A stretch of 64,000 nucleotides of DNA, taken from positions 629,176 to 693,175 of the forward strand of contig CAYFKJ010000002.1 in NCBI GenBank assembly GCA_964343605.1, given 5' to 3'. Source of the DNA: an uncultured Rhodospirillaceae bacterium. GTDB lineage: Bacteria; Pseudomonadota; Alphaproteobacteria; UBA2966. Numbering within the stretch: position 1 is the stretch's first letter; each line of letters starts with the position of its first letter. The notes beneath the pieces were generated by a model. It ran no database searches and had not been told where the DNA came from. It saw only the letters and a list, made by a program, of their open reading frames with translations. A program made the translations under genes and the position numbers. Below are positions 19,833-55,864 of this stretch, in pieces.

Positions 19833-20117
19833 ATGCTGATCATCGAGTGCCCCTGGTGCGGCCCCCGCGATGAGGCCGAGTTTCAATACGGCGGCGAGGC
19901 CCATATCGTGCGTCCGGAAAAACCGGCGGAACTGACGGACGAGCAATGGGCCGAGTACCTCTTCATGCGCACCAACACCAAGGGCCGCTTCCTTGAACGC
20001 TGGATGCACAGCGCCGGATGCCGGCGTTGGTTCAACAGCGTGCGCAACACCGCCACCAACGAAATCGAGGCCGTCTACCGCATGGGCGAGCAGCCGCCCG
20101 GGGACGATGGCGCATGA
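19833..20117 (+). CDS. soxD: sarcosine oxidase subunit delta
   Basis: 94 aa with MLIIECPWCGPRDEAEF, the typical SoxD zinc-ribbon start. It lies between soxB and soxA, and its stop overlaps the soxA ATG (ATGA). Confidence 0.88.
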   Translation: MLIIECPWCGPRDEAEFQYGGEAHIVRPEKPAELTDEQWAEYLFMRTNTKGRFLERWMHSAGCRRWFNSVRNTATNEIEAVYRMGEQPPGDDGA

Positions 20118-23100: not shown

Positions 23101-23149
23101 AACCGGTACTGTGTTCTACGACCCTGAAGGGGAGAGGCTCCATGGCTGA
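20114..23149 (+). CDS. soxA: sarcosine oxidase subunit alpha
   Basis: About 1010 aa with an N-terminal 2Fe-2S-like/NAD region, an FAD Rossmann (VLVVGGGPTGLAAA) and a C-terminal GcvT-like folate-binding domain. Confidence 0.9.
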   Translation: MSIQSHRVRVEQAPAARIDRSKALWFTFNGRRYQGFEGDTLASALVANGVRLVGRSFKYHRPRGLFAAGSEEPNAIVQVESGAQTLPNLRATQVELYDGLTADSVNAWPSVDFDIGVVNDLASRLLPAGFYYKTFMWPAGWWMTYEHVIRRAAGLGIAPPSGDPDTYDHMHVHCDVLVVGGGPTGLAAALAAGRTGARVIIADEQSELGGALLSSRAQVDNAPGLEWVQSTLSELTEMAEVRVMPRTTAFGHYDHNYIGLLERRSDHLGPGRGGDNITRQRIWKVRAGQVIHAGGAIERPLVFAGNDRPGVMLASGAAAYVNRWAASPGRRAVIFANNDSAYAAAADLVDAGVAVEALIDVRGEPGMDARTQVEARDIEILTGYAVVGTRGRRAVEGVDVMRLNEDGTGLNVGDRKIECDLVAVSGGWSPAVHLHCHAGGKVAYDAIQGCFVPGATTQAARSAGAANGQFELAECLSSGWQAGADAADAQGFRKPGRAPKPPSAEFVSTAPPRHLWTVPAKPGRQNGVKRFVDLQHDVTDADIRLAAREGYQSVEHLKRYTTLGMGTDQGKTSNVPGLAILAEELEKPIPEVGTTTFRPPYTAVTMGAIAGRHVGQMLDPLRRSPMHHWHEDHGAAFEDVGQWKRPWFYPREGEDIHAAVDRECLAARNAIGILDATTLGKIDIQGPDAAEFLNRIYTNAWSKLEVGRCRYGLMLGEDGMIMDDGVTSRIAENRYLMTTTSGNAAAVLGWLEEWLQTEWPDLRVYCNSISEYWATLTISGPLARNLLAELCTDIDLSADAFPFMSWREGTVAGTPARIFRISFTGEVSYEINVGASHGLGLWQTLMTAGEKYGITPYGTESMHVLRAEKGYIIVGQDTDGTMTPGDCGMDWIVSKKKPDFIGKRSLSRPDTVRGDRKQLVGLYTEDPLQVLPEGAQIVDDPDAALPMPMIGHVTSSYHSANLGRSIALAVVKGGLGRMGETVHLPLENGRTARAEITGTVFYDPEGERLHG

Positions 23150-37078: not shown

Positions 37079-37651
37079 TCAGTAGGTCTCAAGCTTGAAT
37101 TCCACGGGGAGCGAATTCGAGACGATGTCGTAAACCGGGCTGTGCAGAGCCAGGGCGGTGAGGTCTTCGGCACTGGCCTCGCTTTTCACCCGAAAACCGA
37201 CCCGCACCTCTCTGTAACCCTTGCGTACGGCCTCATCCAGACCCAGCATTCCGCGTGCGTCCATATCGCCTTCCAAGTTCGATTCGACGGCCTCGATCTC
37301 GATGCCTTGCACGGCCGCGTGGTAGACCAGCGTATTCGTCAGACAGGAAGCCAGGCCATGCAGGACGAATTCCATGGCGTTGGGTGCGACGTCTCCCCCG
37401 GCCATGATTTTCGGCTCGTCGGAGTCCACGACAAAAGGTTGGGTGCGGGTCTCGTCTTCCGCACAGGCGGCATAGAAGCCTTGGATGCGGGACCGGTTCA
37501 GACCGCCGCCGATCCAGTCGTTCCGCACTCTGAACTGCATTTGCCCTGCCGCCGGTTCCGCCTGGATGGTTTCGATGACGTTGCTGACCGTGGTGACGTC
37601 CACACCGTTCACGACGGTCGGGCTTTCGATGACTTTGCTATTGATGCTCAT
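37079..37651 (-). CDS. OsmC/Ohr family protein
   Basis: OsmC fold with paired Cys regions (LASCLTNTL ... ALHSPVYD). I prefer the start at MSINSKV. Confidence 0.7.
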   Translation of the reverse strand: MSINSKVIESPTVVNGVDVTTVSNVIETIQAEPAAGQMQFRVRNDWIGGGLNRSRIQGFYAACAEDETRTQPFVVDSDEPKIMAGGDVAPNAMEFVLHGLASCLTNTLVYHAAVQGIEIEAVESNLEGDMDARGMLGLDEAVRKGYREVRVGFRVKSEASAEDLTALALHSPVYDIVSNSLPVEFKLETY

Positions 37652-37699
37652 GATCACTTTCCTTCTTGGGATTTCTATTGATGAAATTGCAATCAACCA

Positions 37700-37800
37700 C
37701 CGAATTCCGTCGGTTGATTGCGCCTGACGGTAGGCGGCGTGGAGCTTGCGGAATACTGCGCGATGCGTAGTATTGGACTACGGATTACGTAGTTAGGGGG
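37700..37800. promoter_or_regulatory. putative divergent promoter/operator region with several perfect or near-perfect palindromes
   Basis: caatcaacc-N13-ggttgattg (9-bp inverted repeat), aatactgcgc-gat-gcgtagtatt and ctacg-gat-tacgtag lie between the divergently transcribed OsmC and HxlR genes. Confidence 0.3.
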
Positions 37801-37805
37801 GCGGA

Positions 37806-38489
37806 ATGACGAGCTACGGACAGTATTGTCCGGTTGCCAAGGCAACCGAGATCATCGGCGAGAAATGGACGCTGCTGATCCTGCGCGAGCTTTTGATGGG
37901 GACGAGCCGGTTCAACGATTTCCAGCGCAGCATGAGCCGCATCTCGCCCACCGTTCTCAACAAGCGTCTGAAGGAACTGGAAGACAACGGCATCATTCTC
38001 CGAAAACGGTTGTCGGGAAAGAAAGGGCATGAATACCGGCTGACGCCGATGGGGCGGGAACTTGAACCGGTGGTGGACCAAGTCGCCAGGTGGGGTCAGA
38101 AGTGGGCGCGGGGCCAGATGTCCGATGAAGAATTGGACGTCGAGCTTTTGATGTGGGACATCCACCGCCGCATCGATCCCACCGGTTTACCCGACGGCGA
38201 AACCGTCATCGGCTTCATTTTCACGGATCTCGAAAAATTCAAGAACTGGTGGCTTGTGGTCGACGGCGGCGACGTCGACCTCTGTACCGAGGATCCGGGC
38301 AAGGACGTCGATATTTACCTGTCGACCGATGTGCGCACGATGATCGAGATCTGGCAGGGCGACGTCGAACCAAACGCCGCCATTCGCGATGACCGCCTGG
38401 TGGCGCTGGGCACCAAAGGTCTAATCCGTAACATGCCGAAGTGGTTCAGGCTTTGCGTTTACGCCGATACGAAGCGGGTTCGGGTCTGA
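37806..38489 (+). CDS. HxlR-family winged-helix transcriptional regulator with extended C-terminal domain
   Basis: CPVAKATEIIGEKWTLLILREL...FNDFQRSM is the HxlR/MarR-like HTH signature. Divergent from the OsmC gene. Confidence 0.75.
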   Translation: MTSYGQYCPVAKATEIIGEKWTLLILRELLMGTSRFNDFQRSMSRISPTVLNKRLKELEDNGIILRKRLSGKKGHEYRLTPMGRELEPVVDQVARWGQKWARGQMSDEELDVELLMWDIHRRIDPTGLPDGETVIGFIFTDLEKFKNWWLVVDGGDVDLCTEDPGKDVDIYLSTDVRTMIEIWQGDVEPNAAIRDDRLVALGTKGLIRNMPKWFRLCVYADTKRVRV

Positions 38490-38503: not shown

Positions 38504-38848
38504 CTAATTCCCGATGGCGTAGATGGCGCGGGCGATTTCACCCTCAAGGGGGAAGGACAGCATGCCCATGACCTCGTAGCCCAGCAGCCAGGGCACGAGA
38601 TAGAAGCGGATCATGAAGAAGAACCAGGCCACGAACAGCGGCACCACGGGCGCCACGAGAAAACTCGGCGTAATGAATTCGAAGGCGTCGATGATGGGAT
38701 CGGTGACGCGGACGAAAAACCGCATGAAGAAAAAACTCGAATTGATGGGCAGGAAGATCGACATGCCGGCACGCCCGATCAGCGTCCACATGACCATGCC
38801 CAGGAGATAATCGATAACGATGACCCAAATGGGGAAGGCGTCCAACAA
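38504..38848 (-). CDS. YggT family membrane protein
   Basis: About 114 aa polytopic protein with a YggT-like RVTDPIIDAFEFITP motif. Confidence 0.55.
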   Translation of the reverse strand: MLDAFPIWVIVIDYLLGMVMWTLIGRAGMSIFLPINSSFFFMRFFVRVTDPIIDAFEFITPSFLVAPVVPLFVAWFFFMIRFYLVPWLLGYEVMGMLSFPLEGEIARAIYAIGN

Positions 38849-38945
38849 AGCTTTGCTCCAGGCTAGTTTCTGGCGGCGAGTCTAATTCAAAAAAATGGGG
38901 CGGAACAGAGTTCCGCCCCAGTAAACGCGTGCTTGTACGGTACGA

Positions 38946-40760
38946 CTAGTGCGAAGCGGAGAGCACCGTGGCGCCCTTCGGAATACGCATGTTGTCGACC
39001 ATTGCCTGAGTTTCGGCGTCCGGTTCCGGAGTCATCTTGGAAACGATGATCATGGCAACCAAACTCACCGGCATGCCGATGATACCGAAGCGCAGGTGAT
39101 CGATACCCCACCACATGTCGCCGCCGAGGAAGCGAATGTGGACGAGGTACAGCGTACCCGCCACGAAACCCGCGACCATACCGGCGATTGCGCCTTGGGT
39201 GTTTGCCCGTTTCCACCAGATGCCGAGCACAAGTGGGAAGAACAAACCCGAGCAGGCGAAATCGAACGCCCAGGCCACGGCACCGAGAATGCTCGTCAAC
39301 TTCAGACTGGCGACGAACGCGCCGGCGCCACCGATCCCGACAAGCAGGATACGTGCGACGATAAGGCGTTTCTTGGTGTCAGCTGTCGGATCGATCATCT
39401 TGTAGTAGAGATCGTGCGACAGGGCGTTGGCGATGGCCAGGAGCAGACCGTCGGCGGTCGACATGGCGGCCGCCATGCCACCGGCGGCGACCAGACCCGA
39501 GATCACGAACGGCAGGCCGGCGATTTCCGGCGTTGCCAGCACGACGATGTCGCCGCGCATAAAGAATTCGTTGATCTGGAGTAGACCGTCCCCGTTGCTG
39601 TCGACAATCTTCAGGAAGCCGACGTTACTCCACTTTTGAATCCAGTCGAGTGACGAGACCTCCGAGAAGGCTTTGCCGATGATACCCGTTGCCAAGTTCG
39701 GATCCAGCACCTGCAACTTGGTGAACGTTGCCAGCGCGGGTGCCGTGAAGTACAGCAGGAAGATGAACAGCAGCGACCAGGCCACGGACTGACGCGCGGC
39801 TTTCACCGAAGGCGTGGTGAAGTAACGCATCAGGATGTGCGGCAAGGACGCGGTGCCGGCCATCATACAGGCAACCAGTGTGACGAACTTCCAGCTCGCC
39901 ATGGCGCTCTCTCCCGCCGCGGCGTGCGGAACCGTCAGCGCGCGCAGGCCTGCGAAGGCCTCCGTGGGCTTCAGTTCGCCAACCCTGTGCAATGCTTCAA
40001 GCTCACCCAAGCGGGCCACCGCGTCACCATAGGCGAACTGCGGAATCAAGCCGAAGCCCTGCTTGCTGGACATCCAGAACACCGGAATCAGGTAGGCGAT
40101 AATCAGCACGATGTACTGCGCCACCTGGGTCCAGGTCACGGCCCGCATACCGCCCAGCATGGAGCAGAGCAGGATGCCGAGAAGACCGAACCAGACGCCA
40201 ACCTCGAACGGAATTTGCAGCGCGCGAGCGGCGATGGTGCCGGTGGCGTTGATCTGCGCCGTCACGTAGGTGAAGGACGCCACCACCAGGATGATCACCG
40301 CGCAAAGGCGGGCCAGGTTACCGCCATAACGCGTCCCGATGTAGTCGGGCACGGTATAGCAGCCAAATTTCCGCAAATACGGCGCCATCAGCGATGCGAC
40401 GAGCACATAGCCGCCGGTCCAACCGACCACGAAGGCCAGGTAGCCGTGTCCGCCGAAGTAGATGCCGCCTGCCATGGCAACGAAAGACGCCCCCGACATC
40501 CAGTCGGCGGCTGTCGCCATACCATTAAAAACGGCGGGTACTTGCCGTCCCGCCACATAGTAAGCTTCGACCTGCATTGTCCGCGACAACCAGCCGATGC
40601 CGGCATAGATGAACACGGTAAACGCAACAAACAAAATGCCGATGGCTTCAGCGCTCAGACCTACTTGCTCCAAGATCGCCATCAACAGGATAAACACGAT
40701 GAAACCACCGGTGTACATCCCGTAAATCTTGGGTAGGTTGTCGATAAATGTGTTCTTCAC
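38946..40760 (-). CDS. sodium:solute symporter family transporter (VC_2705/ActP-like subgroup)
   Basis: About 600 aa, 13-14 TM SSF core (GRQVPAVFNGMATAADWMSGASF...). I prefer the GTG start at 40760, preceded by GGGAGAGG. The track ORF extends to 40841, which would overlap the upstream DUF4212 gene. Confidence 0.85.
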   Translation of the reverse strand: MKNTFIDNLPKIYGMYTGGFIVFILLMAILEQVGLSAEAIGILFVAFTVFIYAGIGWLSRTMQVEAYYVAGRQVPAVFNGMATAADWMSGASFVAMAGGIYFGGHGYLAFVVGWTGGYVLVASLMAPYLRKFGCYTVPDYIGTRYGGNLARLCAVIILVVASFTYVTAQINATGTIAARALQIPFEVGVWFGLLGILLCSMLGGMRAVTWTQVAQYIVLIIAYLIPVFWMSSKQGFGLIPQFAYGDAVARLGELEALHRVGELKPTEAFAGLRALTVPHAAAGESAMASWKFVTLVACMMAGTASLPHILMRYFTTPSVKAARQSVAWSLLFIFLLYFTAPALATFTKLQVLDPNLATGIIGKAFSEVSSLDWIQKWSNVGFLKIVDSNGDGLLQINEFFMRGDIVVLATPEIAGLPFVISGLVAAGGMAAAMSTADGLLLAIANALSHDLYYKMIDPTADTKKRLIVARILLVGIGGAGAFVASLKLTSILGAVAWAFDFACSGLFFPLVLGIWWKRANTQGAIAGMVAGFVAGTLYLVHIRFLGGDMWWGIDHLRFGIIGMPVSLVAMIIVSKMTPEPDAETQAMVDNMRIPKGATVLSASH

Positions 40761-40794
40761 AGAACCTCTCCCATTCTTCCCAATTTTCGGGGTG

Positions 40795-41067
40795 TTACTC
40801 TTCTTCGTCCTCGGCGACGCCGAATTCGTTGTCGATGGCATCCTGGCGCCTTGCGAGCCAGAAAATCAGAACAACAAAGACGATGAGAGATCCTTGAGCT
40901 GCCATATAGAACCCGAGTGGGAAGCCAAGGAAGGAGACGGAGTTTAGTGAGTCGGCGAACCAGTGCACGACAAAGGAAAAGATGAACCAAAGGACCAGAA
41001 CCGTGATCGTAAGGCTCTTGGTCTTGGACCAATGTGCTGCAAGCACATTAGGGTCGGTTTCAGCCAT
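40795..41067 (-). CDS. DUF4212 small membrane subunit associated with sodium:solute symporters
   Basis: 90 aa with two TM helices and an acidic C-tail (...AEDEEE), immediately upstream of the SSF gene. This is the canonical DUF4212-SSF pairing. Confidence 0.75.
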   Translation of the reverse strand: MAETDPNVLAAHWSKTKSLTITVLVLWFIFSFVVHWFADSLNSVSFLGFPLGFYMAAQGSLIVFVVLIFWLARRQDAIDNEFGVAEDEEE

Positions 41068-41286
41068 TATGAAGCCCCCTTTGAGGTTATGACCAAACGA
41101 CCGCGAAGACGCTATATGTTGTGCCCCCGCAATCGACTCAATCCACCTATCGAGCCGTCACTCCCTAATCTTATTTTATCGGCGATCTTTCACTGCCGCC
41201 GTTGGTTATGATTCGTTTTTGGCTCGACAAGCGAATATTCTCTTCTACAAGCACGCGGATACTACTCAAATTTGAAAGCAGAATCT

Positions 41287-42042
41287 ATGCTTCGTTCGTT
41301 AGCCCTCGAACTATTAAAATTTAAGAATTCGTTAAAAGAGGTCGCTTTCTACGTTTTTCTCGCCCTCAAGGCGTTGCGCTTCTGGCGCCGCGAACCCCCC
41401 GTTACTTCGCCGGACGAACTCGCCCGGTACGCCGATACACGGTCGAAATTCGTAGCCCAGACAACGCTGTACGGCTACCTAAAGACCCGTTCGGGCACGC
41501 TTTACCGGTCATTATTCGAGGACGAAAAGTTCGCCAACTCCATCAACATCGCCAAATGGGAGATCTATCTGGCTTGTCTCTGCGATTTCGCCATTTACGC
41601 CACGGCGCGTGTCGGTCTCACGGCGGGTGCCACGGACGAGGAATTTCAAGGCCTTGCCCGCTACCTCGTTTCGTCTGTCCTCGAGGCAGAGGAAATTCCC
41701 GCCGAGCGGCCCGACGGCTTCGACGACGTGCGTGAGGCCTTCGACATACGGATCAGGGGCGTTCTCTGGCGCGATACCAGCGAAAGCGACGATTTCTTTG
41801 CCGCCAGCCGCAAAGCGCTGGTCAAATGGGCGCCGATTGCCGACGAGCTCAAGGACCTGGATACCGAAATCGTCGAGAACTCGATGTATTTCAAGTGGAA
41901 GCAGGTCCGGGGACAGTTTACCGAATTGCTTGAGGCCCAGGCGGTGCTCGAAGCTTGGCAGGAGCAGGCTAAGAGCACCGCGTACGAGGGCGAGCGCCAG
42001 GAATTGATTTCGGAGACTTCCGTCACACCGCAAGAATCATAA
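41287..42042 (+). CDS. hypothetical protein (no recognisable domain)
   Basis: 251-aa ORF with coding-like composition and a low-GC 5' end. 25 nt upstream of the CBS-DUF294 gene. Confidence 0.45.
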   Translation: MLRSLALELLKFKNSLKEVAFYVFLALKALRFWRREPPVTSPDELARYADTRSKFVAQTTLYGYLKTRSGTLYRSLFEDEKFANSINIAKWEIYLACLCDFAIYATARVGLTAGATDEEFQGLARYLVSSVLEAEEIPAERPDGFDDVREAFDIRIRGVLWRDTSESDDFFAASRKALVKWAPIADELKDLDTEIVENSMYFKWKQVRGQFTELLEAQAVLEAWQEQAKSTAYEGERQELISETSVTPQES

Positions 42043-42067
42043 GAAACGGAACGGGGACCGGAACCCG

Positions 42068-43525
42068 ATGACCACCGCCACCGACATCTTTTTCAAACGG
42101 GTCGACCAGCACGCCGACGGACAGCCGGCGGAGGTGCCCGCCGAAACAACGCTGCGGGAAATTGTCGGACTTATGGCCACCGGCAAGTACACCGCCGTTA
42201 TCGTGGTGGACGGCGACCGGCGACCCGTCGGAATCATTACCGAGCAGGACATCGTCCGCCGCGTCGCCTTCAATGCCGATCCCGATCAGCCGGCGCCGGA
42301 TATCATGACCCGGCCTGTCCACACGATCGGCGCTCGGGAGCGCTTGTTTATCGCCATCGCGCGCATGCGCAGGCTCGGGCATCGCCACATGCCGGTGGTC
42401 GACGGACATGGCCGTCTTTGCGGTATTTTAGATCTGCACGACACGATGGTTCATGCCGCCGGGAACCTGATCGGTGAAATCGAGGAACTGACGCAGGACG
42501 ATTCGATCGACGGCTTGACGGAGATTAAGGCCGCCCAGGTCGACGTGGCCGACCAGATGCTGCGGGACGGCGTTTCGGCCAGTGAGATCCAGACCCTGCT
42601 AAGCCACGTCAACAACGACATCTACCGGCGACTGACGGAGTTGAATCTCGCGGCCCTGGCGGATGAAGGCAGCGAGCCGCCGGCGGGTTTCAACGTCATC
42701 ATCATGGGATCGGGCGGGCGCAGCGAAAACTATATCTACCCCGATCAGGATTTCGGTTTCATCGTGGCCGACTATCCGGACGACCGGCACACCGAAATCG
42801 ACCAATGGTTTATCGAGTTGGCGGCACGCGTGTCCGACGACCTCAACAAAGTCGGTTTGCCTTACTGCACCGGCAACGTCATGGCGACCAATCCTTTGTG
42901 GCGAAAAACCGTCTCGCAGTGGAAGGGACAAGTCGACTACTGGAACCGGCGCGCAAATGTCACGGCGCTTATCAGTTTCGACATCTTCTTCGACTTTCAG
43001 GCCTCGTGGGGCGATCCCTCGTTGGCGGCCGAGCTGCGCAGCTATGTGACGAAGGTGACGAAAGGGAACGAGCCGCTCCTGCGGGCGCTCTATACGGCGG
43101 ATCGCGACCACGGTACGGCACGCCGCTGGTTCGGCCGCTTCGCCACGGAGAAGAAGGACCCGGCGCATCGCGGCGAAATCAATCTCAAGCTTTACGGCAC
43201 CCTGCCTTTGATCGAGGGTGTACGCATGCTGGCGTTGCGCGAAGGCGTTGAAAACACCGGCACCTTAAGGAGGTTGGATGTTCTTCTGGCGCAAAACGTC
43301 GTCACGCGCGACGAGTTCGACGATCTCACCAGCGCCTACAAGACGATTTGCGATCTTTTGCTTCGTCATCAAATCGAGGACTTCAAGATCGAGCGCAAGG
43401 TTTCGGGGTTTGTCCATCCCAAGAAGCTCAGCCGGTGGCAAAAGCGCCGGCTCCGCGAAGCTTTCAAGGCCGTTGAAGGTCTGCGCCAGCGCATCAACTT
43501 CGAGTTCGGCGGCGAGATCTTCTAG
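42068..43525 (+). CDS. CBS-pair + DUF294 putative nucleotidyltransferase (GlnD/GlnE-like pol-beta NTase) with DUF294_C substrate-binding domain
   Basis: Two CBS motifs (AVIVVDGDRRPVGIITEQDI; MPVVDGHGRLCGILDLHD), the NTase signature GSGGRSENYIYPDQDFGFIV (GS...D.D) and a helical C-domain. Confidence 0.75.
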   Translation: MTTATDIFFKRVDQHADGQPAEVPAETTLREIVGLMATGKYTAVIVVDGDRRPVGIITEQDIVRRVAFNADPDQPAPDIMTRPVHTIGARERLFIAIARMRRLGHRHMPVVDGHGRLCGILDLHDTMVHAAGNLIGEIEELTQDDSIDGLTEIKAAQVDVADQMLRDGVSASEIQTLLSHVNNDIYRRLTELNLAALADEGSEPPAGFNVIIMGSGGRSENYIYPDQDFGFIVADYPDDRHTEIDQWFIELAARVSDDLNKVGLPYCTGNVMATNPLWRKTVSQWKGQVDYWNRRANVTALISFDIFFDFQASWGDPSLAAELRSYVTKVTKGNEPLLRALYTADRDHGTARRWFGRFATEKKDPAHRGEINLKLYGTLPLIEGVRMLALREGVENTGTLRRLDVLLAQNVVTRDEFDDLTSAYKTICDLLLRHQIEDFKIERKVSGFVHPKKLSRWQKRRLREAFKAVEGLRQRINFEFGGEIF

Positions 43526-44505
43526 AACCGCTCCTGCATCTTTCGCACGTGCTCGATTTTTGAGCTGGCGTCGACCACCTGCCTGAGCGTCGTGATGCCG
43601 CGCGCCTCCAAACGCTGCATCATCTTCAACAGGATCTTGGCGGTGGCAATGCTGTCGCCCAGGGCGGTATGCCGGCCTTCGATGGAAATGCCCATGCGCT
43701 CGGCGATGGCATCCAACGAGTGGTTATGGCTTTCGTGTTCGAGGAAGACGTTGATGAGCAACGTGTCGAGAACCAGATTGGGAAAGATGACGCCTGTTTC
43801 CTCTTCCTTGAGCTGAAGGAAGCGCATGTCGAAAGCGGCATTGTGGGCAACCAAAATGGCATCCCCAACATAGTCTCGAAACGACGGCAGGACATCGCCG
43901 ATGCGATCCTCGGCCGCCACCATGTCGTCGGTGATGCCGTGGTATTTGATCGACAAGGGCGGAATGGTCATGCCGGGATTGACAAGCCTGGAGTACACGT
44001 CCGCCTCGTTCAGCTCGCCATTGTCGATGCGGACGGCCGCGATGGAGATGATTTCGTCGCCGTCGGAGGGTCGCAGGCCCGTAGTTTCCGTATCGAACAC
44101 CACGAAGTGGAGGTCCTTCAACAACTTGCCTTGGATTTCGTCCCAATGCATGGGCTGGGAGTGATCGTCGAAATCATAAAACTCGGGTCGTGCCGGCAGG
44201 CTACGGTGATCGGTGTTTCGGGCAACCAGCAATCGGTCCGCCATCAACCAGAAAGCGGCTGTCGCGAACAACGCCAAAGCCAAGATCGACCATAGATAAC
44301 GAACAGATACGCCCGGACTGCCGTCTGCCAACTGATCGGACAGGAGCCAGGCCGTAACGCTGATCAGCACGGCCAGTATCACAACCACGCCCGTGAATGC
44401 CAACGCGACAATGCGACGGATACTCATACCTCTAAACTGGCGAATGCGATCCATACGGCGAACCCAAACATTACTGTCGGCTGCGGAACGATGCCCGCGC
44501 ATCAT
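43522..44505 (-). CDS. membrane-anchored DEDDh 3'-5' exonuclease (DnaQ/PolIII-epsilon-like)
   Basis: Two N-terminal TM helices, then Exo I FDTETTGL...D, Exo II HNAAFDMRFL and Exo III H..GDSIATAKIL. Convergent with the DUF294 gene and overlapping it by 4 nt. The true start may be an internal Met. Confidence 0.75.
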   Translation of the reverse strand: MMRGHRSAADSNVWVRRMDRIRQFRGMSIRRIVALAFTGVVVILAVLISVTAWLLSDQLADGSPGVSVRYLWSILALALFATAAFWLMADRLLVARNTDHRSLPARPEFYDFDDHSQPMHWDEIQGKLLKDLHFVVFDTETTGLRPSDGDEIISIAAVRIDNGELNEADVYSRLVNPGMTIPPLSIKYHGITDDMVAAEDRIGDVLPSFRDYVGDAILVAHNAAFDMRFLQLKEEETGVIFPNLVLDTLLINVFLEHESHNHSLDAIAERMGISIEGRHTALGDSIATAKILLKMMQRLEARGITTLRQVVDASSKIEHVRKMQERF

Positions 44506-44863: not shown

Positions 44864-45979
44864 ATGTCCAAATCGAAAGTCAAATCGTCCCGCCGCAAAT
44901 TCCTGAAAGGAATGGGCGTTGCGGGCGGTGCGGCGGTAGCCGGCACAATCGCTGCGCCGAACATTGTGCAAGCCAAGACCAAGGTGCTCAAGGTGCAGGC
45001 AGCCTGGGGCGGCGGCATTTTCCTTGAGAACGCCAAAAGCTACGTCAAGCGCGTCCATGACATGGCGGGTAAGGACCTGAAGATCGACCTCTTGTCGGTC
45101 AACTCCGTGGTCAAGACCAGCCAGATGCAGGATGCGGTGCACCGCGGCGTCCTCGACGGCGCCCACTACGTGCCGGCCTACTGGTATTCGAAGTCCAAGG
45201 CCGCGTCGTTGTTCGGCACCGGTCCTTGCTTCGGCTGGTCGGCTCAGGAGCTACTGGGTTGGATCCATTACGGCGGCGGTATGGAACTCTTCAACGAGTT
45301 GATGGGAAGCCTTCAACTCAATCTGGTGAGCTTCTTCAACAGCCCGATGCCGGCGCAGCCCTTGGGCTGGTTCAAGGAGGAAATCAAAGACGCCTCCCAG
45401 ATGAACGGCCTGAAGTACCGCACGGTCGGCCTAGCCGCGGACGTTCTATCCGTTATGGGCATGTCCGTCGCGCAATTGCCGGGCGGTGAAATCCAGCCGG
45501 CCATGAAATCAGGCCTGATCGATGCTGCCGAGTTCAACAATCCGACTTCGGATAAGGACTTCGGCATGCAGGACGTTTCGAAGCACTATCATCTCGCCAG
45601 CTTCCACCAATCCCAGGAAGCCTTCGAGATTACCTTCAACAAGAAGACGTTCGACGCACTGCCCCAGGAGCATCAGAAAATTCTCGAGTATGCTTCCGAA
45701 GCGGAAAACTCGAACTTCTACTGGCACAACACACTGCGTTATGCCGACGATCTGATCGTGCTAAAGGAAAAGAGTGGCGTGAACGTCTACCGCACACCCG
45801 ATTCCGTGATGCAGGAACAGTTGAAGGCTTGGGACGTCGTGGTCGACCGTATTTCCGGAGAAGATCCTTTCTTCGCCAAGGTCGTGGCCTCGCAAAAAGC
45901 CTACGCCAAGAAAGTGATGAACTACCTGCTGTTGAACCAGCCTGACTACAGCATGGCTTACAGGCATCACTTCGGTTAA
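44864..45979 (+). CDS. TRAP transporter substrate-binding protein (DctP family, Tat signal)
   Basis: SRRKFLKGMGVAGGAAVAG twin-arginine signal with a DctP-like body. Start moved to MSKSKV (GGAGGAG RBS). Confidence 0.8.
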   Translation: MSKSKVKSSRRKFLKGMGVAGGAAVAGTIAAPNIVQAKTKVLKVQAAWGGGIFLENAKSYVKRVHDMAGKDLKIDLLSVNSVVKTSQMQDAVHRGVLDGAHYVPAYWYSKSKAASLFGTGPCFGWSAQELLGWIHYGGGMELFNELMGSLQLNLVSFFNSPMPAQPLGWFKEEIKDASQMNGLKYRTVGLAADVLSVMGMSVAQLPGGEIQPAMKSGLIDAAEFNNPTSDKDFGMQDVSKHYHLASFHQSQEAFEITFNKKTFDALPQEHQKILEYASEAENSNFYWHNTLRYADDLIVLKEKSGVNVYRTPDSVMQEQLKAWDVVVDRISGEDPFFAKVVASQKAYAKKVMNYLLLNQPDYSMAYRHHFG

Positions 45980-46091
45980 ACAAAACGGCAATCATTGGTC
46001 GATCAAACGATGAATGATGAATGTTTGGGATAGGGACAGCCAAGGGGCTGTCCCTGTTCTTTGCTTCGACGAGTAGAACGGGAGAAAGCGC

Positions 46092-46658
46092 ATGAGAGCC
46101 GTCATTCATGCCATCGAAAGCCTCAACATCTGGATCGGACGCGCATTTGGTTGGTGCATCGTGATCTTGACGTTGTCGGTTTCGTACGAGGTTTTCGTGC
46201 GCTATGCCCTGAACGCTCCGACAGTCTGGGCCTTCGACATGATGGTCCAAATGTATGGTGCGCTTTTCCTGATGGCCGGGCCTTATGCCTTGGCCCAGGA
46301 CGGTCATGTCCGTGCGGACGTGGTTTACCGGCTAATTCCGGTCGAGTGGCAGGCCCGGTTTGATTTCTTTCTGTACATCATTTTCTTTTTCCCCGGCATG
46401 CTGGCGCTATTCTGGTACGGCGCCGAGATCGCCAGCGATTCCTGGCGTTACCAGGAGGTAAGCTGGAACAGCCCGGCCCGCATCCAGATTTATTTCTTCA
46501 AAACACTGATCCCCATTGCAGGCGGACTGCTGATCGTCCAAGGCATTGCCGAATGCATGCGCTGTTATCTCGCCATCAAAACCGGCCGTTGGCTGGAACG
46601 CCTGGAGGACGTCCAGGAAACCGAGAACGTCCTTACCCACGAAGCGGGACTCGATTGA
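46092..46658 (+). CDS. TRAP transporter small permease (DctQ)
   Basis: About 188 aa with 4 TM helices, located between DctP and DctM. Confidence 0.75.
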   Translation: MRAVIHAIESLNIWIGRAFGWCIVILTLSVSYEVFVRYALNAPTVWAFDMMVQMYGALFLMAGPYALAQDGHVRADVVYRLIPVEWQARFDFFLYIIFFFPGMLALFWYGAEIASDSWRYQEVSWNSPARIQIYFFKTLIPIAGGLLIVQGIAECMRCYLAIKTGRWLERLEDVQETENVLTHEAGLD

Positions 46659-46713
46659 GCCCCAAGAACCAACACCGTCCGATCGTTGTCGGAGTGACGG
46701 AGTACGCCAAAGA

Positions 46714-48081
46714 ATGACAAACCCCGAAGTCGCCATTCTGATGCTGAGCTTGTTCATCCTGCTCGTGCTGCTTGGATTCCCCATAGCCTTTACATTGGTC
46801 GCCATGGGCGTGGGTTTCGGCTACTACGCCTATTACGACCCCGACCGGATCGACGTATTTTCCGATCTCTTCGACAACCAGATATTTTATCTCCTGAATC
46901 AGAATACATACTCCGTGATGGAGAACGACACGCTTGTCGCTGTGCCGTTGTTCCTATTTATGGGCTACGTGGTCGAACGGGCGGACATTGTGACGCGACT
47001 GTTCTCGTCGCTCAGGTTGGCTGCCCGCAACATGCCGGGATCCATGGCGATCGCGGCATTGATAACCTGCGCTGTGTTCTCCACCGCCAGCGGCATCGTC
47101 GGCGCGGTCGTGACCCTGATGGGCCTATTGGCCTTTCCGGCGATGGCCCAGGCCAACTACAACAAACAATTCGCATCCGGCGTAATCTGCGCCGGCGGTA
47201 CCCTGGGCATTTTGATCCCGCCCTCGATCATGCTCATTGTCTACGCGGCGATTGCTGAACTGTCGCCGCTCCGGCTTTACGCCGCCGCAGTGTTTCCGGG
47301 ATTCATGCTGGCCGGGTTCTACATTCTGTATGTGATGGCTCGCGCCAAGATCAACCCGTCACTGGCGCCGAAACCTCTTGACGAGGAGGTGCCGCCGAAG
47401 AGCGAAATTTACATCTCTCTGCTGACGTCGTTCGTGCCGCTAACGGTCCTTATCATGATGGTGCTGGGATCCATCCTCGGCGGCCTTGCCACTCCCGCGG
47501 AAGCGGCCGCGATGGGGGCCTTGGGCGCGGTCATCCTGGCGGCGCTCTATCGCTCCCTGACCTGGGAGAAAATGAAGGAATCGGTGTTCCTCACGGCCAA
47601 GGCGACCGCCATGGTCTGTTGGCTGTTCGTCGGCTCTTGGACCTTCGCGGCCGTGTTCTCCTATCTCGGCGGCCACGACATCATCGAACACTGGATCGTG
47701 TCGTTCCAGTTGGAGCCCTGGCAGTTCCTTATCCTGGCTCAGGCCATCATCTTCCTGCTGGGTTGGCCGCTGGAGTGGTCGGAAATCCTGATCATCTTCG
47801 TACCGATCTTCCTGCCCATGCTGGATACTTTCGGCGTCAATCCTTACTTCTTCGCCATGCTGGTCGCGCTGAACCTGCAAACCTCCTTCCTGACTCCGCC
47901 CATGGCGATGTCAGCCTATTATCTCAAGGGGGTTCTGAAGTCGCAGATCGAGCTGATGGACATCTTCAAGGGCATCATGCCCTATCTGGCCATCGTCATC
48001 TTTGCCATGGTTCTGATGTACCAGTTCCAAGGCTTGGCGCTGTGGTTCCCGGACTACCTGTTCGGACCGTACATTCCTTAG
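46714..48081 (+). CDS. TRAP transporter large permease (DctM)
   Basis: 455 aa polytopic DctM-like protein. Start moved to MTNPEVAILM; the track ORF starts upstream inside the dctQ overlap. Confidence 0.85.
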   Translation: MTNPEVAILMLSLFILLVLLGFPIAFTLVAMGVGFGYYAYYDPDRIDVFSDLFDNQIFYLLNQNTYSVMENDTLVAVPLFLFMGYVVERADIVTRLFSSLRLAARNMPGSMAIAALITCAVFSTASGIVGAVVTLMGLLAFPAMAQANYNKQFASGVICAGGTLGILIPPSIMLIVYAAIAELSPLRLYAAAVFPGFMLAGFYILYVMARAKINPSLAPKPLDEEVPPKSEIYISLLTSFVPLTVLIMMVLGSILGGLATPAEAAAMGALGAVILAALYRSLTWEKMKESVFLTAKATAMVCWLFVGSWTFAAVFSYLGGHDIIEHWIVSFQLEPWQFLILAQAIIFLLGWPLEWSEILIIFVPIFLPMLDTFGVNPYFFAMLVALNLQTSFLTPPMAMSAYYLKGVLKSQIELMDIFKGIMPYLAIVIFAMVLMYQFQGLALWFPDYLFGPYIP

Positions 48082-48105
48082 TTTTGAGTACATACGGTCA
48101 AGCTT

Positions 48106-49434
48106 ATGTCTCTGCATTTCAAATCGGCCACGGAAGCGACTGCCGACATCAGGGCGGGCGAGTACTCGTCCGAGGATTTGGTGCGGGACTGCCTCAACCG
48201 GATCGATGCGACCGACGCTGCGATCAAGGCCTGGGTGCACCTCGATCCCGATCAGGCCCTGGCCCAGGCGAGATCGCTGGATGAGATGCGCCAACAAGGA
48301 AAGCCGCTCGGGTCCCTTCACGGGGTGCCCGTGGGTATCAAGGATATCTACGATACCGCCGACATGCCGACCGCGTACGGTTCGCCGATCTACAAAGATC
48401 GGCAGCCCGCTGCCGATGCAACCACCGTGGCCAAGCTGCGCCAAGCCGGCGCCGTCATCATGGGCAAAACAGTGACGGCTGAGTTCGCCTTCGTAACCCC
48501 CGGGGAAACGACCAATCCGCACGATCCGGATCATACACCGGGCGGCTCCTCCAGCGGTTCCGCGGCGGCTGTGGCGGCAGGCCACGTCCCCCTGGCCCTG
48601 GGCAGCCAAACCAACGGCTCGGTCATTCGTCCGGCGTCGTTTTGCGGAATCGTCGGCCTCAAACCGAGCCGGGGCATGATCTCCCGCCACGGTGTTTTGC
48701 GGACCTCGGAGACCCTGGATCAAATCGGCGGCTTCGCCAGGACGCTGGAGGATATTGCACTTCTGACCGACGCCTTAACGGGCTATGACGCAGCCGACGA
48801 GGCCACCTACGCCCGGCCCAAGCCGAATTTCTCTGAGGGTAGTCGGGAGGAGGCTCCTGTCGAACCTTCGCTGGCCTGGCTTGAACTGCCGTACTACGAA
48901 CGTCTGACAGACGATGCGCGGAGCGGGTTCGCCGAATTGCGGGAAGCGCTCGGCGATCTTGTCGAGGAAGTGGCCTATCCCGACAGCCTCGGTGACGTGA
49001 TCGATCATCACCAGGTTATTCACGAGTACGAAGTGCGCCGAAATTTGGCCGATGCCTACGAAAAAGCGCCGGACCAGATTAGCCCGCAACTCATGGAAAA
49101 GATCGAGCATGGCGGCAGCTACACCGAGGAGCAATACACCGGTGCGCTGGAGGCAGTCGCCGACACCGGCGCCTACTTCGCCGAGTTCTTCAACGACTAC
49201 GACGCAGTTCTGACGCCTGCAGCGTCTGGCGAGGCGCCGGAAGGTCTGGGCTGGACCGGAGATCCTATCTTTTGCACAATCTGGACGTTCTGCGGTCTGC
49301 CGAGCTTGTCGCTGCCGCTGTTGCAGGGTGAAAATGACCTGCCGGTCGGCGTGCAACTTGTGTCCGGGTTGGAGGAAGATGCACGGCTTTGCCGTACGGC
49401 CCGTTGGTTGATGGAGCATATATCGGACGGCTAA
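48106..49434 (+). CDS. amidase-signature (AS) family amidase
   Basis: Ser-cisSer-Lys signature region GGSSSGSAAAVAAG and KD.YDT, the GatA-like fold. Confidence 0.85.
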   Translation: MSLHFKSATEATADIRAGEYSSEDLVRDCLNRIDATDAAIKAWVHLDPDQALAQARSLDEMRQQGKPLGSLHGVPVGIKDIYDTADMPTAYGSPIYKDRQPAADATTVAKLRQAGAVIMGKTVTAEFAFVTPGETTNPHDPDHTPGGSSSGSAAAVAAGHVPLALGSQTNGSVIRPASFCGIVGLKPSRGMISRHGVLRTSETLDQIGGFARTLEDIALLTDALTGYDAADEATYARPKPNFSEGSREEAPVEPSLAWLELPYYERLTDDARSGFAELREALGDLVEEVAYPDSLGDVIDHHQVIHEYEVRRNLADAYEKAPDQISPQLMEKIEHGGSYTEEQYTGALEAVADTGAYFAEFFNDYDAVLTPAASGEAPEGLGWTGDPIFCTIWTFCGLPSLSLPLLQGENDLPVGVQLVSGLEEDARLCRTARWLMEHISDG

Positions 49435-53261: not shown

Positions 53262-53428
53262 GCCTTGGGCTTGCCGGGCCGGCTTGACTTGGGCGATGAC
53301 GGTATCGCGATAATTGGTGGCGGCGGTGTGCTAGTTCAGGCTAAGGCGGGTAAGCAAGATTGGCCGAAAGCGGACCTCGCCGGGTCCGCGGTGCATTGGG
53401 CGACCAAAGTGTCAGTTGGGGAAGAGCA

Positions 53429-55864
53429 ATGAAATCTCAAGCGCGAGTTGTGGTTATCGGCGGCGGCGTCGTCGGCGTCAGTACACTTTATCATCTGGCC
53501 AAGAAGGGCTGGTCCGACGTCGTCCTGTTGGAGCGCACGGAACTTACGGCGGGCTCCACCTGGCACGCGGCCGGATTGCTGCCGCTCTTCAACATGAGCT
53601 ACACGGTTGGCCAGATCCACAAGTACTCCGTCGATCTCTACAAGACGCTGGAGGCGGAAACCGGTCAGGACGTCAGCTTCCATGTCACCGGCAACTTGCG
53701 CCTAGCCACAAACAAGGAGCGCATGGACGAGTATCAGAAGTACTGCGGTACGGCCAACACCATCGGGGTCCCGTTTGAACTGATCACGCCCGCCGAAATC
53801 AAGGAGTTGTGGCCGCTTTGCAACGTGGAAGGCCTGGTTGGCGCGCTATACCACCCCGACGACGGCCACATCGCGCCGGTGGACGTGACGCAAGCCATGG
53901 CAACCGGCGCCCGCAACAACGGCGCCGAGATTTACCGCCAGACCCAGGTCGACGCCATCGAACAGAAACCGAACGGTGAATGGCTGATCAAAACCAACCA
54001 GGGCGACATTACCTGCGAGCACGTGGTTTCCTGCACCGGCAACTACGCCCGCCAAACCCTGGCCATGGTCGGGCTGGATATTCCCGTCATTCCGGTCGAG
54101 CACCAATACATCGTCACCGACGAGGTGCCGGATCTGGTGGAACGCAAGAAACAGGGCTTGCCCGAGATGGCGGTATTGCGCGAATCGGACGCCTCCTATT
54201 ACCTGCGTGAGGAGCGCCAGGGCTACATCCTAGGTCCCTACGAGAAGGGTGCGCCGGCGTGCTTCGTCGACGGCGTGCCGGAGACCTTCGGTCAGGACCT
54301 CTTCCCCGGCGATCTCGAACGCTTGATGCCCCACGTCGAAGCCGCCATCAACCGTGTACCGACCTTCGAGGACGCCGGCATTAAGGACATCGTCAACGGA
54401 CCAATCGCCTATACGCCGGACGGCAGCCCGATGGTCGGACCGGCCTGGGGGCTCAAAAATTTCTGGATGTCGGAAGGTCACAGCTTCGGCGTTACCGCCG
54501 CCGGCGGCGCCGGCTGGCAATTGGCCGAGTGGATCGTCGAGGGGGAACCGGGAATCGACATGATGGACGTCGATCCCCGCCGCTTTGGCCCGTACGCCAA
54601 CAAGGCCTATACCAAGGCCAAGAACGAGGAATGCTACGAGCACGTCTTCATCATCCATTATCCGGACGAGGAACGCCCAGCGGCGCGCCCCGCCAAACAA
54701 AGCCCGTGTCACGAACGCCTCGATGCCGAGGGCGCCGTCTGGGGCCAGCGTTATGGTTGGGAGCGGCCCAATTGGTTCGCCCCCGAAGGCGTCGAGCGCA
54801 AGGACGTCTGGAGTTTCCGTCGCAGCAATTACTTCGAACATGTCGGTAACGAATGCCGTGCCGTGCGCGAGGGCGTGGCGCTGATTGACCTCACCAGTTT
54901 CACCAAGCATCTGGTAACGGGTCCGGGCGCAGCCGACTATCTGGCCGGTCTCGTTTGCCGCAAGCTGCCGATCAAGATCGGCCGTATCAACCTGGCCCAC
55001 GCCCTGACGGCGAAGGGCGGCGTGCGCTCGGAGTTCACCATCATGCGCGAAGGGGAGGAACAGTACTTCCTCGTCAGCTCGGGTGCCGCCGAGCGCTTCG
55101 ACAACGACTACCTGACCAAGCATCTGCCGGATGACGGCAGCGTGCGGCTCGACAACATCACCACGGCCAACGGCTGTTTCGTCGTTGTGGGACCGAAATC
55201 GCGCGAGCTGATGGCGCGGATTTCCGATGCCGATTTCTCCAACGAAGCCTTTCCCTGGCTCACGGGACAGACCATCCAGCTCGGCATGGCCCGCACCAGG
55301 GCACTGCGCGTGAATTTCGTCGGCGAACTAGGCTGGGAACTGCATCATCCGATCGAGTACCAGAACCACATCTACGACACCTTGGTTGCCGCGGCCGAGG
55401 ATCTCGGCGGTCTATCCATGTGCGGCATGCGCGCGATGGACAGCTTGCGTATCGAAAAGTCCTACCGCATGTGGGCCCAGGACCTGACGCGCGACTACAC
55501 GGTGCTGGAAGCCGGCCTCGACCGTTTCGTCCACCTCGACAAGGGCGAATTCATCGGCCGCGAGGCCTTGGTTGCCCAGAAGGAAGCAGGCATTCCCAAT
55601 ACCTTTGTCACGTTGGAGGTCGACGCTGTCGATGCCGACGCCTGGGGATCGGAGCCCTTGTTCGTCGGCGATACCATGATCGGCCGCGCTACCGCCGGCG
55701 CCTATGGCCATTGCGTCGGCAAGAGCCTGGCGCTGGCCTACGTCCAGCCCGACTACGGCGCCGTCGGCACCGAAATGGAGATCAACATCCTCGGCGACCG
55801 CCGCGCCGCCCGCGTCATCGAAGAATCCCCCTGGGATCCGGAGAACGAGAGGTTAAGGGGATAG
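53429..55864 (+). CDS. dimethylglycine dehydrogenase-like (FAD DAO domain + GcvT folate-binding domain)
   Basis: VVVIGGGVVGVSTLYHLA FAD motif, covalent-FAD His region (STWHAAG) and a C-terminal aminomethyltransferase fold. Start moved to MKSQARV. Confidence 0.85.
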   Translation: MKSQARVVVIGGGVVGVSTLYHLAKKGWSDVVLLERTELTAGSTWHAAGLLPLFNMSYTVGQIHKYSVDLYKTLEAETGQDVSFHVTGNLRLATNKERMDEYQKYCGTANTIGVPFELITPAEIKELWPLCNVEGLVGALYHPDDGHIAPVDVTQAMATGARNNGAEIYRQTQVDAIEQKPNGEWLIKTNQGDITCEHVVSCTGNYARQTLAMVGLDIPVIPVEHQYIVTDEVPDLVERKKQGLPEMAVLRESDASYYLREERQGYILGPYEKGAPACFVDGVPETFGQDLFPGDLERLMPHVEAAINRVPTFEDAGIKDIVNGPIAYTPDGSPMVGPAWGLKNFWMSEGHSFGVTAAGGAGWQLAEWIVEGEPGIDMMDVDPRRFGPYANKAYTKAKNEECYEHVFIIHYPDEERPAARPAKQSPCHERLDAEGAVWGQRYGWERPNWFAPEGVERKDVWSFRRSNYFEHVGNECRAVREGVALIDLTSFTKHLVTGPGAADYLAGLVCRKLPIKIGRINLAHALTAKGGVRSEFTIMREGEEQYFLVSSGAAERFDNDYLTKHLPDDGSVRLDNITTANGCFVVVGPKSRELMARISDADFSNEAFPWLTGQTIQLGMARTRALRVNFVGELGWELHHPIEYQNHIYDTLVAAAEDLGGLSMCGMRAMDSLRIEKSYRMWAQDLTRDYTVLEAGLDRFVHLDKGEFIGREALVAQKEAGIPNTFVTLEVDAVDADAWGSEPLFVGDTMIGRATAGAYGHCVGKSLALAYVQPDYGAVGTEMEINILGDRRAARVIEESPWDPENERLRG

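Follow-up and report, generated by a model that had tools for sequence, protein, structure and literature searches.

Mutant fitness data have shown that DUF4212 is needed for sodium:solute symporter (SSF)-mediated use of D,L-lactate in Shewanella and of D-alanine in Pseudomonas stutzeri, and that cofitness links DUF4212 transporters to a COG2905 gene close by, mutants of which phenocopy DUF4212/SSF mutants on lactate and D-alanine (10.1101/072470). In Pseudomonas aeruginosa, the genes PA3232-PA3235, encoding an exonuclease, a nucleotidyltransferase (NTase), ActP and YjcH, are induced ~16-fold on propionate (PMC9765439), and Pflu5625 of Pseudomonas fluorescens, an NTase with cyclic nucleotide monophosphate (cNMP)-binding and CBS domains, is a member of the CrbS/R regulon. 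The PP_0354/PP_0353 operon of Pseudomonas putida is bound by ErdR and is among the most strongly MxtR/ErdR-dependent genes (PMC9927547; 10.64898/2026.09.07.749794). Deletion of PP_0353 or PP_0354 causes a moderate growth defect on propionate, deletion of PP_0353 also impairs growth on pyruvate, and the function of both genes was still unexplained in the September 2026 preprint that reported this and that calls for protein chemistry (10.64898/2026.09.07.749794). No literature was found on the Vibrio counterparts VC2702-VC2705. Here we describe a related locus at 38504-44505 of a 64-kb stretch of DNA from an uncultured Rhodospirillaceae bacterium (contig CAYFKJ010000002.1; hereafter the window), in which an NTase and a DEDDh exonuclease stand beside a DUF4212-SSF transporter and a 251-aa protein of an unannotated family, which we call UNK. 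A first-pass annotation of this DNA had pointed to a transporter-NTase-nuclease neighbourhood of unestablished biochemistry in Pseudomonas and Vibrio, and for Pseudomonas this agrees with the literature on PA3232-PA3235, PP_0354/PP_0353 and Pflu5625.

The open reading frames (ORFs) of the window were confirmed at their coordinates and domains were assigned with Pfam and NCBIfam. The region is made up of six coherent genes and amounts to two overlapping conserved modules, namely a transporter module and an NTase-exonuclease unit. As in PP_0354/PP_0353 (P. putida/alloputida KT2440), PA3233/PA3232 and Pflu5625, an NTase with a CBS pair and DUF294 is paired here with an RNase_T/DEDDh exonuclease, and the pair is tied by genome position or transcription to a monocarboxylate SSF permease, which in Pseudomonas is actP-yjcH, either adjacent or co-regulated. 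The N-terminal cNMP-binding domain (PF00027) of the Pseudomonas counterparts is missing from the window NTase, which opens with the CBS pair according to Pfam; PF00027 is present in its relatives in loci L058 and L040. The window exonuclease is anchored by two transmembrane (TM) helices and encoded convergently with overlapping stop codons, whereas theirs lies downstream in the same operon. The transporter is of the DUF4212 plus VC_2705 type, not YjcH plus ActP, and is joined by extra genes for UNK and a YggT-like protein. Besides, Sama_1522/1523/1525 of Shewanella amazonensis and Psest_0346/0347/0349 of P. stutzeri RCH2 likewise combine a DUF4212 and TIGR03648-type transporter with a nearby COG2905-type NTase gene, which by genetic evidence the transporter requires in order to function; a CBS pair followed by the NTase is common to COG2905 and the window protein, the latter having no cNMP-binding domain.

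The NTase (485 aa, 42068..43525, + strand) and the exonuclease (43522..44454, - strand) are one functional unit, because fusions of the two are common and the stop codons of the separate genes overlap. Neighbourhoods were counted in the best 80 of 287 loci, many of them from metagenome-assembled genomes (MAGs), by BLAST matches of the window proteins within at most 10 kb; 37 of the 80 loci are well flanked, with at least 7 kb on both sides. A single ORF of ~700 aa reading RNase_T-CBS-CBS-DUF294-DUF294_C occurs in ~10 of the 80 (Pfam-confirmed for L066 and L026). With the fused protein of Thalassobaculum as query, 2812 matches were retrieved, the best 120 of which all carry the four domains at no less than 54% identity and 99-100% coverage. 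Fused proteins of ~703 aa are found in many Hyphomicrobiales, with cultured Mesorhizobium, Aminobacter, Aquibium, Chelativorans and Aurantimonas among the carriers, and also in Thalassobaculum. Where NTase and exonuclease are encoded separately and convergently, 5 of 10 pairs show a 4-nt overlap of the stop codons, and four of the other five show a gap of 5-30 nt. In the window (43522-43525), as in L008, L009, L024, L030 and L090, the overlap is the palindrome CTAG, which is common to both TAG stops. The 3' ends of both transcripts must therefore overlap as well, and this could make the expression of the two genes reciprocal.

The fusions also largely refute a coincidental neighbourhood, in which the exonuclease would be a housekeeping or DNA-repair paralog of DnaQ and the CBS-NTase an unrelated sensor, and which we consider very improbable. 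Bacteria do have many DnaQ-like paralogs, and NTase orthologs are found next to mutS and glnD without a transporter (L088) or alone (L093); but the domains are fused in the best 120 of the 2812 matches, the tail-to-tail overlap is conserved, and in 62% of the well-flanked genomes, which belong to three classes, the UNK-symporter module has an NTase or exonuclease no more than 10 kb away. In addition, co-regulation and cofitness have been published, and the exonuclease stays well below the cutoffs of the replicative epsilon models (95.9 versus 222.7 for TIGR01406; 95.5 versus 196 for PRK05711), so that an assignment as replicative epsilon was rejected.

A survey from the NTase side covered long contigs with four orthologs of the window NTase, and also three fused genes in cultured-type genomes. 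NTase and convergent exonuclease occur without a transporter in L089, and the fused gene of Aquibium (L093) stands alone with no SSF nearby. In L090 and L091, the NTase and convergent exonuclease are divergent from an SSF of another subfamily (24% identical) and UNK is absent. Downstream of the SSF genes of this other subfamily, accessory genes for an ~80-aa protein and a ~207-aa TPR protein were noticed (L090 1455-2320; L091 4408-5276), and the small partners seem to be specific to each SSF subfamily. In all, the NTase-exonuclease pair accompanies at least three SSF subfamilies. In L088 (8001-15151), an NTase ortholog (57% identical) with neither exonuclease nor transporter lies directly upstream of mutS and glnD; as a side observation, this glnD encodes the PII uridylyltransferase, and the glnD family, with GlnE, is the closest structural kin of the NTase.

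In the window NTase, two CBS stretches are followed by DUF294 (PF03445, 124 bits against a cutoff of 21) and DUF294_C (PF10335, 122.1 bits against a cutoff of 22.5). The residues of its motif G214-S215...D226-x-D228 do not vary among the 41 homologs taken from the loci or among 38 orthologs; in the 41 homologs, R218 and E220 reach a conservation of at least 90%. Comparison of a predicted model revealed the fold of an NTase plus helical C-terminal domain that is common to the protein nucleotidylyltransferases GlnE, GlnD and DrrA (SidM), and DUF294_C has been grouped with the C-terminal domains of GlnD and GlnE as non-catalytic domains of the HEPN clan (PMC3710099). The protein is thus predicted to have the fold of protein AMPylating or UMPylating enzymes, and not that of a polymerase or cGAS-type synthase. 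Unlike in these relatives, the sensor is a CBS pair and not ACT domains, and there is no significant sequence match: NCBIfam GlnE is matched with 15.5 bits, the cutoff being 625, and by its sequence the NTase is not assignable to the GlnE or GlnD family. The first-pass annotation had spoken of a nucleotide-based signalling, modification or turnover circuit, and the predicted GlnE/DrrA-like fold lends support to the modification part.

A second-messenger circuit, an idea that the same annotation had raised, is another reading. In the form considered here, the sensor-regulated NTase would make a linear or cyclic (oligo)nucleotide and the DEDDh enzyme would degrade it, as oligoribonuclease does with pGpG, so that transport or assimilation is gated, perhaps with UNK as the receptor. 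The sensor repertoire is typical of messenger synthases and phosphodiesterases, as NTases of the family carry cNMP-binding and CBS domains and the exonucleases carry two TM helices or PAS and can have a response regulator adjacent, and the fusion of opposing activities recalls GGDEF-EAL proteins. The predicted fold, however, resembles GlnE and DrrA and not synthases of the cGAS/DncV/OAS type, the CBASS-type and other NTase models of PADLOC gave no match, no receptor domain is recognisable in UNK, and DUF294 proteins are not known to make a product of this kind. We therefore judge this circuit quite unlikely.

The exonuclease matches RNase_T with 115 bits (cutoff 24). In 39 homologs its residues D138, E140, D226, H279 and D284 are kept, the one exchange being D to E at position 226, and all five were aligned with those of the solved PolC, DinG and DnaQ exonuclease domains. 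These are also its closest solved relatives, the best PDB matches ranging from E 7e-27, for the PolC exonuclease domain, to 1e-9. The DEDDh residues are thus kept, as are the catalytic aspartates D226 and D228 of the NTase, and the first-pass annotation was right in its domains, catalytic motifs and membrane anchor; since both sites are strictly conserved, both enzymes are predicted to be catalytically active. The maximal ORF of the exonuclease extends to 44505, but the real gene is probably 43522-44454, encoding 310 aa, because homologs begin at M18. Hydrophobic helices are found at residues 32-50 and 71-89, with nine lysine and arginine residues in the arginine-rich segment 1-31 and only one in the inter-helix loop. 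As basic residues are enriched at the N-terminus and not in the loop, the sequence implies an N-in hairpin with a cytoplasmic RNase_T/DnaQ-like catalytic domain, and the two-TM anchor would put this domain at the cytoplasmic face of the membrane, beside the transporter.

Four architectures of the exonuclease were distinguished: the two-TM hairpin plus DEDDh domain of the window; a two-TM hairpin with a long linker, which contains PAS in L080 and L091, ahead of the DEDDh domain; fusion to the N-terminus of the NTase; and, as the Pseudomonas type, a free DEDDh protein of ~236 aa beside a cNMP-CBS-DUF294 protein of 640-700 aa. The PAS-containing partner exonucleases are 705-774 aa long (L091 9492-11982; L080 9967-12291) and look like sensor-controlled DEDDh enzymes; the one in L091 adjoins a gene for a 122-aa single-domain response regulator. 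The window protein shares the fold and five catalytic residues with DnaQ/epsilon, PolC, DinG and Cas2-DEDDh, and differs from them in its two-TM hairpin, as its relatives differ in their fusion to PAS or to CBS-DUF294.

Pairs of an NTase and a nuclease are common in defence systems, DUF294_C is placed in the HEPN/KNTase_C clan, and the DEDDh domain matches the PADLOC models for CRISPR-associated DEDDh and PDC-S48, all of which would suit an anti-phage or conflict system of the CBASS-like or MNT/HEPN-like kind. These DEDDh matches are generic, though, and the NTase, UNK and the YggT-like protein match no PADLOC model. The surroundings are metabolic, keep their synteny in different classes and contain no mobile-element genes; the HEPN catalytic motif is absent from the DUF294_C/GlnD group (PMC3710099), and the published phenotypes concern carbon sources. 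A defence role is the most improbable of the explanations considered, and together with mere coincidence it is essentially excluded.

UNK (41287..42042, + strand) and the NTase are separated by 25 nt and probably co-transcribed. The first-pass annotation had treated UNK, NTase and exonuclease as one set conserved together, and the neighbourhoods do not bear this out. SSF and DUF4212 genes were each found at 36 of the 37 well-flanked UNK loci and the YggT-like gene at 35, while a DUF294 NTase or DEDDh exonuclease was found at 23 (62%, in three classes) and both at 18. About 38% of the well-flanked loci thus contain UNK with no NTase or exonuclease within 10 kb, and loci with neither include L004, L010, L027, L029 and L034-L038. 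Conversely, pairs of NTase and exonuclease without UNK exist beside an SSF of another subfamily. Because SSF and DUF4212 accompany it at 36 of 37 well-flanked loci, UNK is a dedicated genomic partner of the DUF4212-SSF-YggT-like transporter. Like the window, 45 of the 80 loci have UNK and DUF4212 in divergent orientation, and in 24, mostly from Beta- and Gammaproteobacteria, UNK lies tail-to-tail just after the YggT-like gene; where an ortholog of the cNMP-less NTase follows UNK, the gap is 3-75 nt and operon-like. One locus, L032 (10001-12101), has UNK and NTase adjacent (13-nt gap) with no SSF, DUF4212 or YggT-like gene within ~10 kb. This is the one clear exception, in which UNK goes with the NTase and not with the symporter.

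Next to the fused gene in L092 (Aminobacter-type) and L094 (Aurantimonas endophytica), and following it, comes a 210-aa gene divergent from DUF4212, SSF (51% identical) and YggT-like genes; the UNK profile recognises the 210-aa protein at 61-69 bits. The content of these two loci means that the full six-component set recurs across long evolutionary distances, in another arrangement. Both loci also contain, after the YggT-like gene, a gene for an additional unannotated hydrophobic protein of 105 aa (L092 13690-14007; L094 13707-14027), which may be a further small subunit.

UNK itself has no Pfam, NCBIfam or PDB-sequence match and no structural relative. It is an acidic (pI 4.8), soluble, all-helical and presumably cytoplasmic protein with no predicted TM segment. 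A word-indexed search retrieved 1436 homologs and an exhaustive search 863 representatives at 50% clustering, almost all of them stand-alone proteins of 200-250 aa. In a genome scan, 287 species-level genomes proved to encode relatives; they belong to Alpha-, Beta- and Gammaproteobacteria and include the cultured Thioalkalivibrio sulfidiphilus and Thalassobaculum fulvum. Tyr64 is invariant in close homologs and replaced by Phe in distant Hyphomicrobiales members. A role as transcription factor is unlikely, because UNK is acidic, has no helix-turn-helix match and, in Beta- and Gammaproteobacteria, lies tail-to-tail after the operon and not divergent from it. Three homologs from MAGs (P0082, P0087, P0103) carry the NCBI name 'esterase', which looks like an annotation artefact, as no search gave a hydrolase relationship. 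Besides, P0386 (467 aa) was set aside as a UNK fusion; it joins a truncated GT4 domain to a partial UNK region and is probably a chimeric, uninformative gene call. Neither the UNK family nor the YggT-like partner is mentioned in the literature searched. Since UNK is separable from the NTase-exonuclease pair, and the pair is described in the literature, the locus is not the undescribed system that the first-pass annotation had suggested, and is better seen as a described but unsolved system plus a symporter partner family previously unremarked.

The SSF (38946..40760, - strand; 13 predicted TM segments) matches Pfam SSF with E 3.4e-50 and TIGR03648, the VC_2705 family, with 686.5 bits (cutoff 320.75). 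The earlier label 'ActP/VC_2705-type' is therefore correct for VC_2705 and not for ActP, the cutoffs of which are far from reached (143.5 versus 750 for NF006903; 110.4 versus 1099 for TIGR02711); MctC (153 versus 670) and PutP, with its cutoff likewise far away, were rejected too. The maximal ORF extends to 40841, and gene callers on identical ENA metagenome contigs place the start at the GTG of 40760, which gives 604 aa. The gene for the DUF4212 small subunit (40795..41067, - strand; 90 aa, two TM helices; PF13937 at 98.6 bits with cutoff 30, TIGR03647 at 94.2 bits with cutoff 26.05) ends 34 nt before this start. SSF orthologs adjoining UNK in other classes are 70-88% identical. Like ActP-YjcH and MctC-type transporters, this is an SSF-family Na+/H+-coupled carboxylate permease preceded by the gene for a small two-TM subunit; unlike theirs, the small subunit is DUF4212 and not DUF485, and two further partners, the YggT-like protein and UNK, are present. 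Judging from homologs, the transported solute is presumably a small carboxylate of the lactate, pyruvate, alanine and acetate class.

The third gene of the symporter module encodes a YggT-like small membrane protein of 114 aa (38504..38848, - strand). The first-pass annotation gave correct coordinates and stopped one gene short of it. The protein has at least two predicted TM helices (7-25 and 62-80) and matches Pfam YGGT (PF02325) with 20.6 bits, below the cutoff of 27 bits; in 20 of 26 family members YGGT is likewise the sole, weak match (best E 1.6e-5). Its gene follows the SSF directly in 68 of the 80 loci.

Between the two genes, a terminator scan detected an intrinsic-terminator hairpin (38896..38920, - strand) with an 11-bp stem of eight GC pairs and a T7 tail. 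A hairpin with a T-run between the SSF stop and the YggT-like start was found in 64 of 67 related loci (L008-L087) from Alpha-, Beta- and Gammaproteobacteria, with a median spacer of 105 nt and a stem whose sequence varies among loci. This conservation of position in three proteobacterial classes suggests attenuation or differential expression within the symporter operon. The divergent intergenic region between the symporter and UNK-NTase operons (41068..41286), which should hold their promoters, yielded a single weak match to a sigma-70-like promoter, on the minus strand, and a comparison of 48 divergent promoter regions gave no k-mer that is broadly conserved. In contrast to the MxtR/ErdR (CrbS/CrbR) targets, no ACTU-like motif of CrbR was detected for the window genes in the four intergenic regions that were searched with a relaxed, crude regular expression, the motif having been defined in Gammaproteobacteria.

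The hairpin bears on one of the two main rivals of the explanation that we favour below, the other being the second-messenger circuit. In this rival the NTase would add untemplated nucleotides to the 3' end of a particular RNA, for example a small RNA or the mRNA of the symporter, and the exonuclease would trim 3' ends, which would set transcript stability and thereby symporter expression. Several points speak for such tailing and trimming: the exonuclease is by its sequence of the bona fide nucleic-acid 3'-5' type, closest to PolC, DinG and DnaQ; action of both enzymes on 3'-OH ends would explain their fusion; the hairpin inside the symporter operon keeps its position in 64 of 67 loci; an overlap between the convergent transcripts of NTase and exonuclease is inevitable; and the speculation of Price et al. 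on symporter expression fits. But a membrane anchor or PAS fusion is unusual for an RNA-processing enzyme, and a shared RNA target is not evident, because the SSF subfamilies that go with the pair are unrelated and differ in operon structure. Moreover, an Rfam scan of the locus gave no structured RNA, the one match, far below threshold, falling on the terminator hairpin. Altogether we think this rival unlikely.

Our preferred explanation, which we put forward tentatively and which may well prove wrong, holds that carboxylate uptake is tuned by a reversible nucleotidylylation switch at the membrane. One module would be the transporter, in which UNK serves DUF4212, the VC_2705-family SSF and the YggT-like protein as a family-specific accessory or regulatory partner. 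The other would comprise the NTase with its GlnE/DrrA-like predicted fold, its activity being set by an adenine-nucleotide-sensing CBS pair, and a DEDDh phosphodiesterase tethered to the inner membrane face. As the writer, the NTase would attach an NMP (AMP or UMP) to a hydroxyl group in a protein that belongs to the machinery for transport or assimilation, and as the eraser the DEDDh enzyme would hydrolyse the phosphodiester and free the 5'-NMP. The switch would match carboxylate uptake to the energy status of the cell, by a logic analogous to that of GlnD and GlnE. That a protein is the substrate, that the exonuclease erases, which protein is the target and which solute is transported are all inferred. 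A narrower version, in which the CBS/cNMP-gated NTase writes, the DEDDh enzyme erases, the activity of the SSF transporter is controlled directly and UNK is the transporter-specific target or adaptor, appears doubtful to us.

The likeness of the NTase fold to AMPylators, the conserved active sites, the fusion, the membrane anchor, the SSF association and the published cofitness and co-regulation all argue for such a switch. The order hydrolase, sensor, NTase in the fused protein parallels the bifunctional GlnD. The putative eraser is here a DEDDh domain, compared with an HD domain in GlnD, a phosphorolytic NTase domain in GlnE and the PP2C-like SidD for DrrA.

A number of observations weigh against the switch. 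The closest relatives of the exonuclease, that is, the exonuclease domains of PolC, DinG and DnaQ as well as Cas2-DEDDh, all act on nucleic acids, and we know of no DEDDh enzyme that takes a nucleotide off a protein. The likeness of the NTase to GlnE and DrrA, taken from the predicted model, is at the fold level only, and a CBS-free NTase profile finds no solved NTase in the PDB. In the homolog alignments of UNK, no conserved Tyr, Ser or Thr acceptor was identified. NTase or exonuclease orthologs also occur with no transporter nearby (L088, L089, L093). Furthermore, Price et al. speculated that COG2905 acts on the expression of the symporter and not on its activity (10.1101/072470), the phenotypes reported for Pseudomonas are mild, and the literature searched contains no biochemical characterisation of any DUF294 protein or partner exonuclease.

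Beyond the six genes, a TRAP transporter (TAT-signal DctP, DctQ, DctM) and then an amidase are encoded directly downstream of the exonuclease (44864-49434, + strand), and they were rejected as part of the module, being kept only in the closest relatives (L001, L008, L009). MAG loci that are 84-90% identical to the window are labelled Rhodospirillaceae. Just past the YggT-like gene lie divergent genes for an OsmC-like protein (205 aa) and an HxlR-SCP2 regulator (227 aa; 37079-38489), also kept only in the closest relatives (L002, L009). Some 28-30 kb upstream are the malate synthase G gene glcB (11520-13706, + strand) and a hybrid kinase gene (8478-10901, - strand; PAS-PAS-HisKA-HATPase-REC), whose product, the only window kinase checked, has no SLC5 domain. 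An NTase-exonuclease operon is found near glcB in P. putida as well, but at a distance of 28 kb we judge the link to be coincidental. A sarcosine oxidase alpha-subunit-like gene (20018-23149, + strand) and a DAO-GCV_T gene resembling dimethylglycine/sarcosine dehydrogenase (53360-55864, + strand) are also present, and the surrounding region may be devoted to the catabolism of methylated amines or glycine betaine.

What is new here is, on the transporter side, the UNK and YggT-like symporter partners, and on the enzyme side the pairing of an NTase that has no cNMP-binding domain with an exonuclease anchored in the membrane, the wide occurrence of fusions between exonuclease and NTase, the overlap of their stop codons and the AMPylator-like assignment of the predicted fold. 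The NTase-exonuclease pair is widespread in Proteobacteria and cofit with lactate and alanine transporters, and it has been unexplained for about a decade. It is now constrained to a single enzyme unit with an AMPylator-like predicted fold, whose exonuclease is often membrane-anchored or PAS-linked and which accompanies several SSF subfamilies, while a conserved four-gene transporter module of UNK, DUF4212, SSF and YggT-like genes has been defined. Cultured hosts are at hand in Aminobacter, Aurantimonas, Thalassobaculum, Thioalkalivibrio and P. putida. If the model of a writer and an eraser is true, the pair would bring a new eraser chemistry for protein AMPylation and a new layer of post-translational control on short-chain carboxylate uptake, which would matter for carbon cycling and for the physiology of Pseudomonas and Vibrio.

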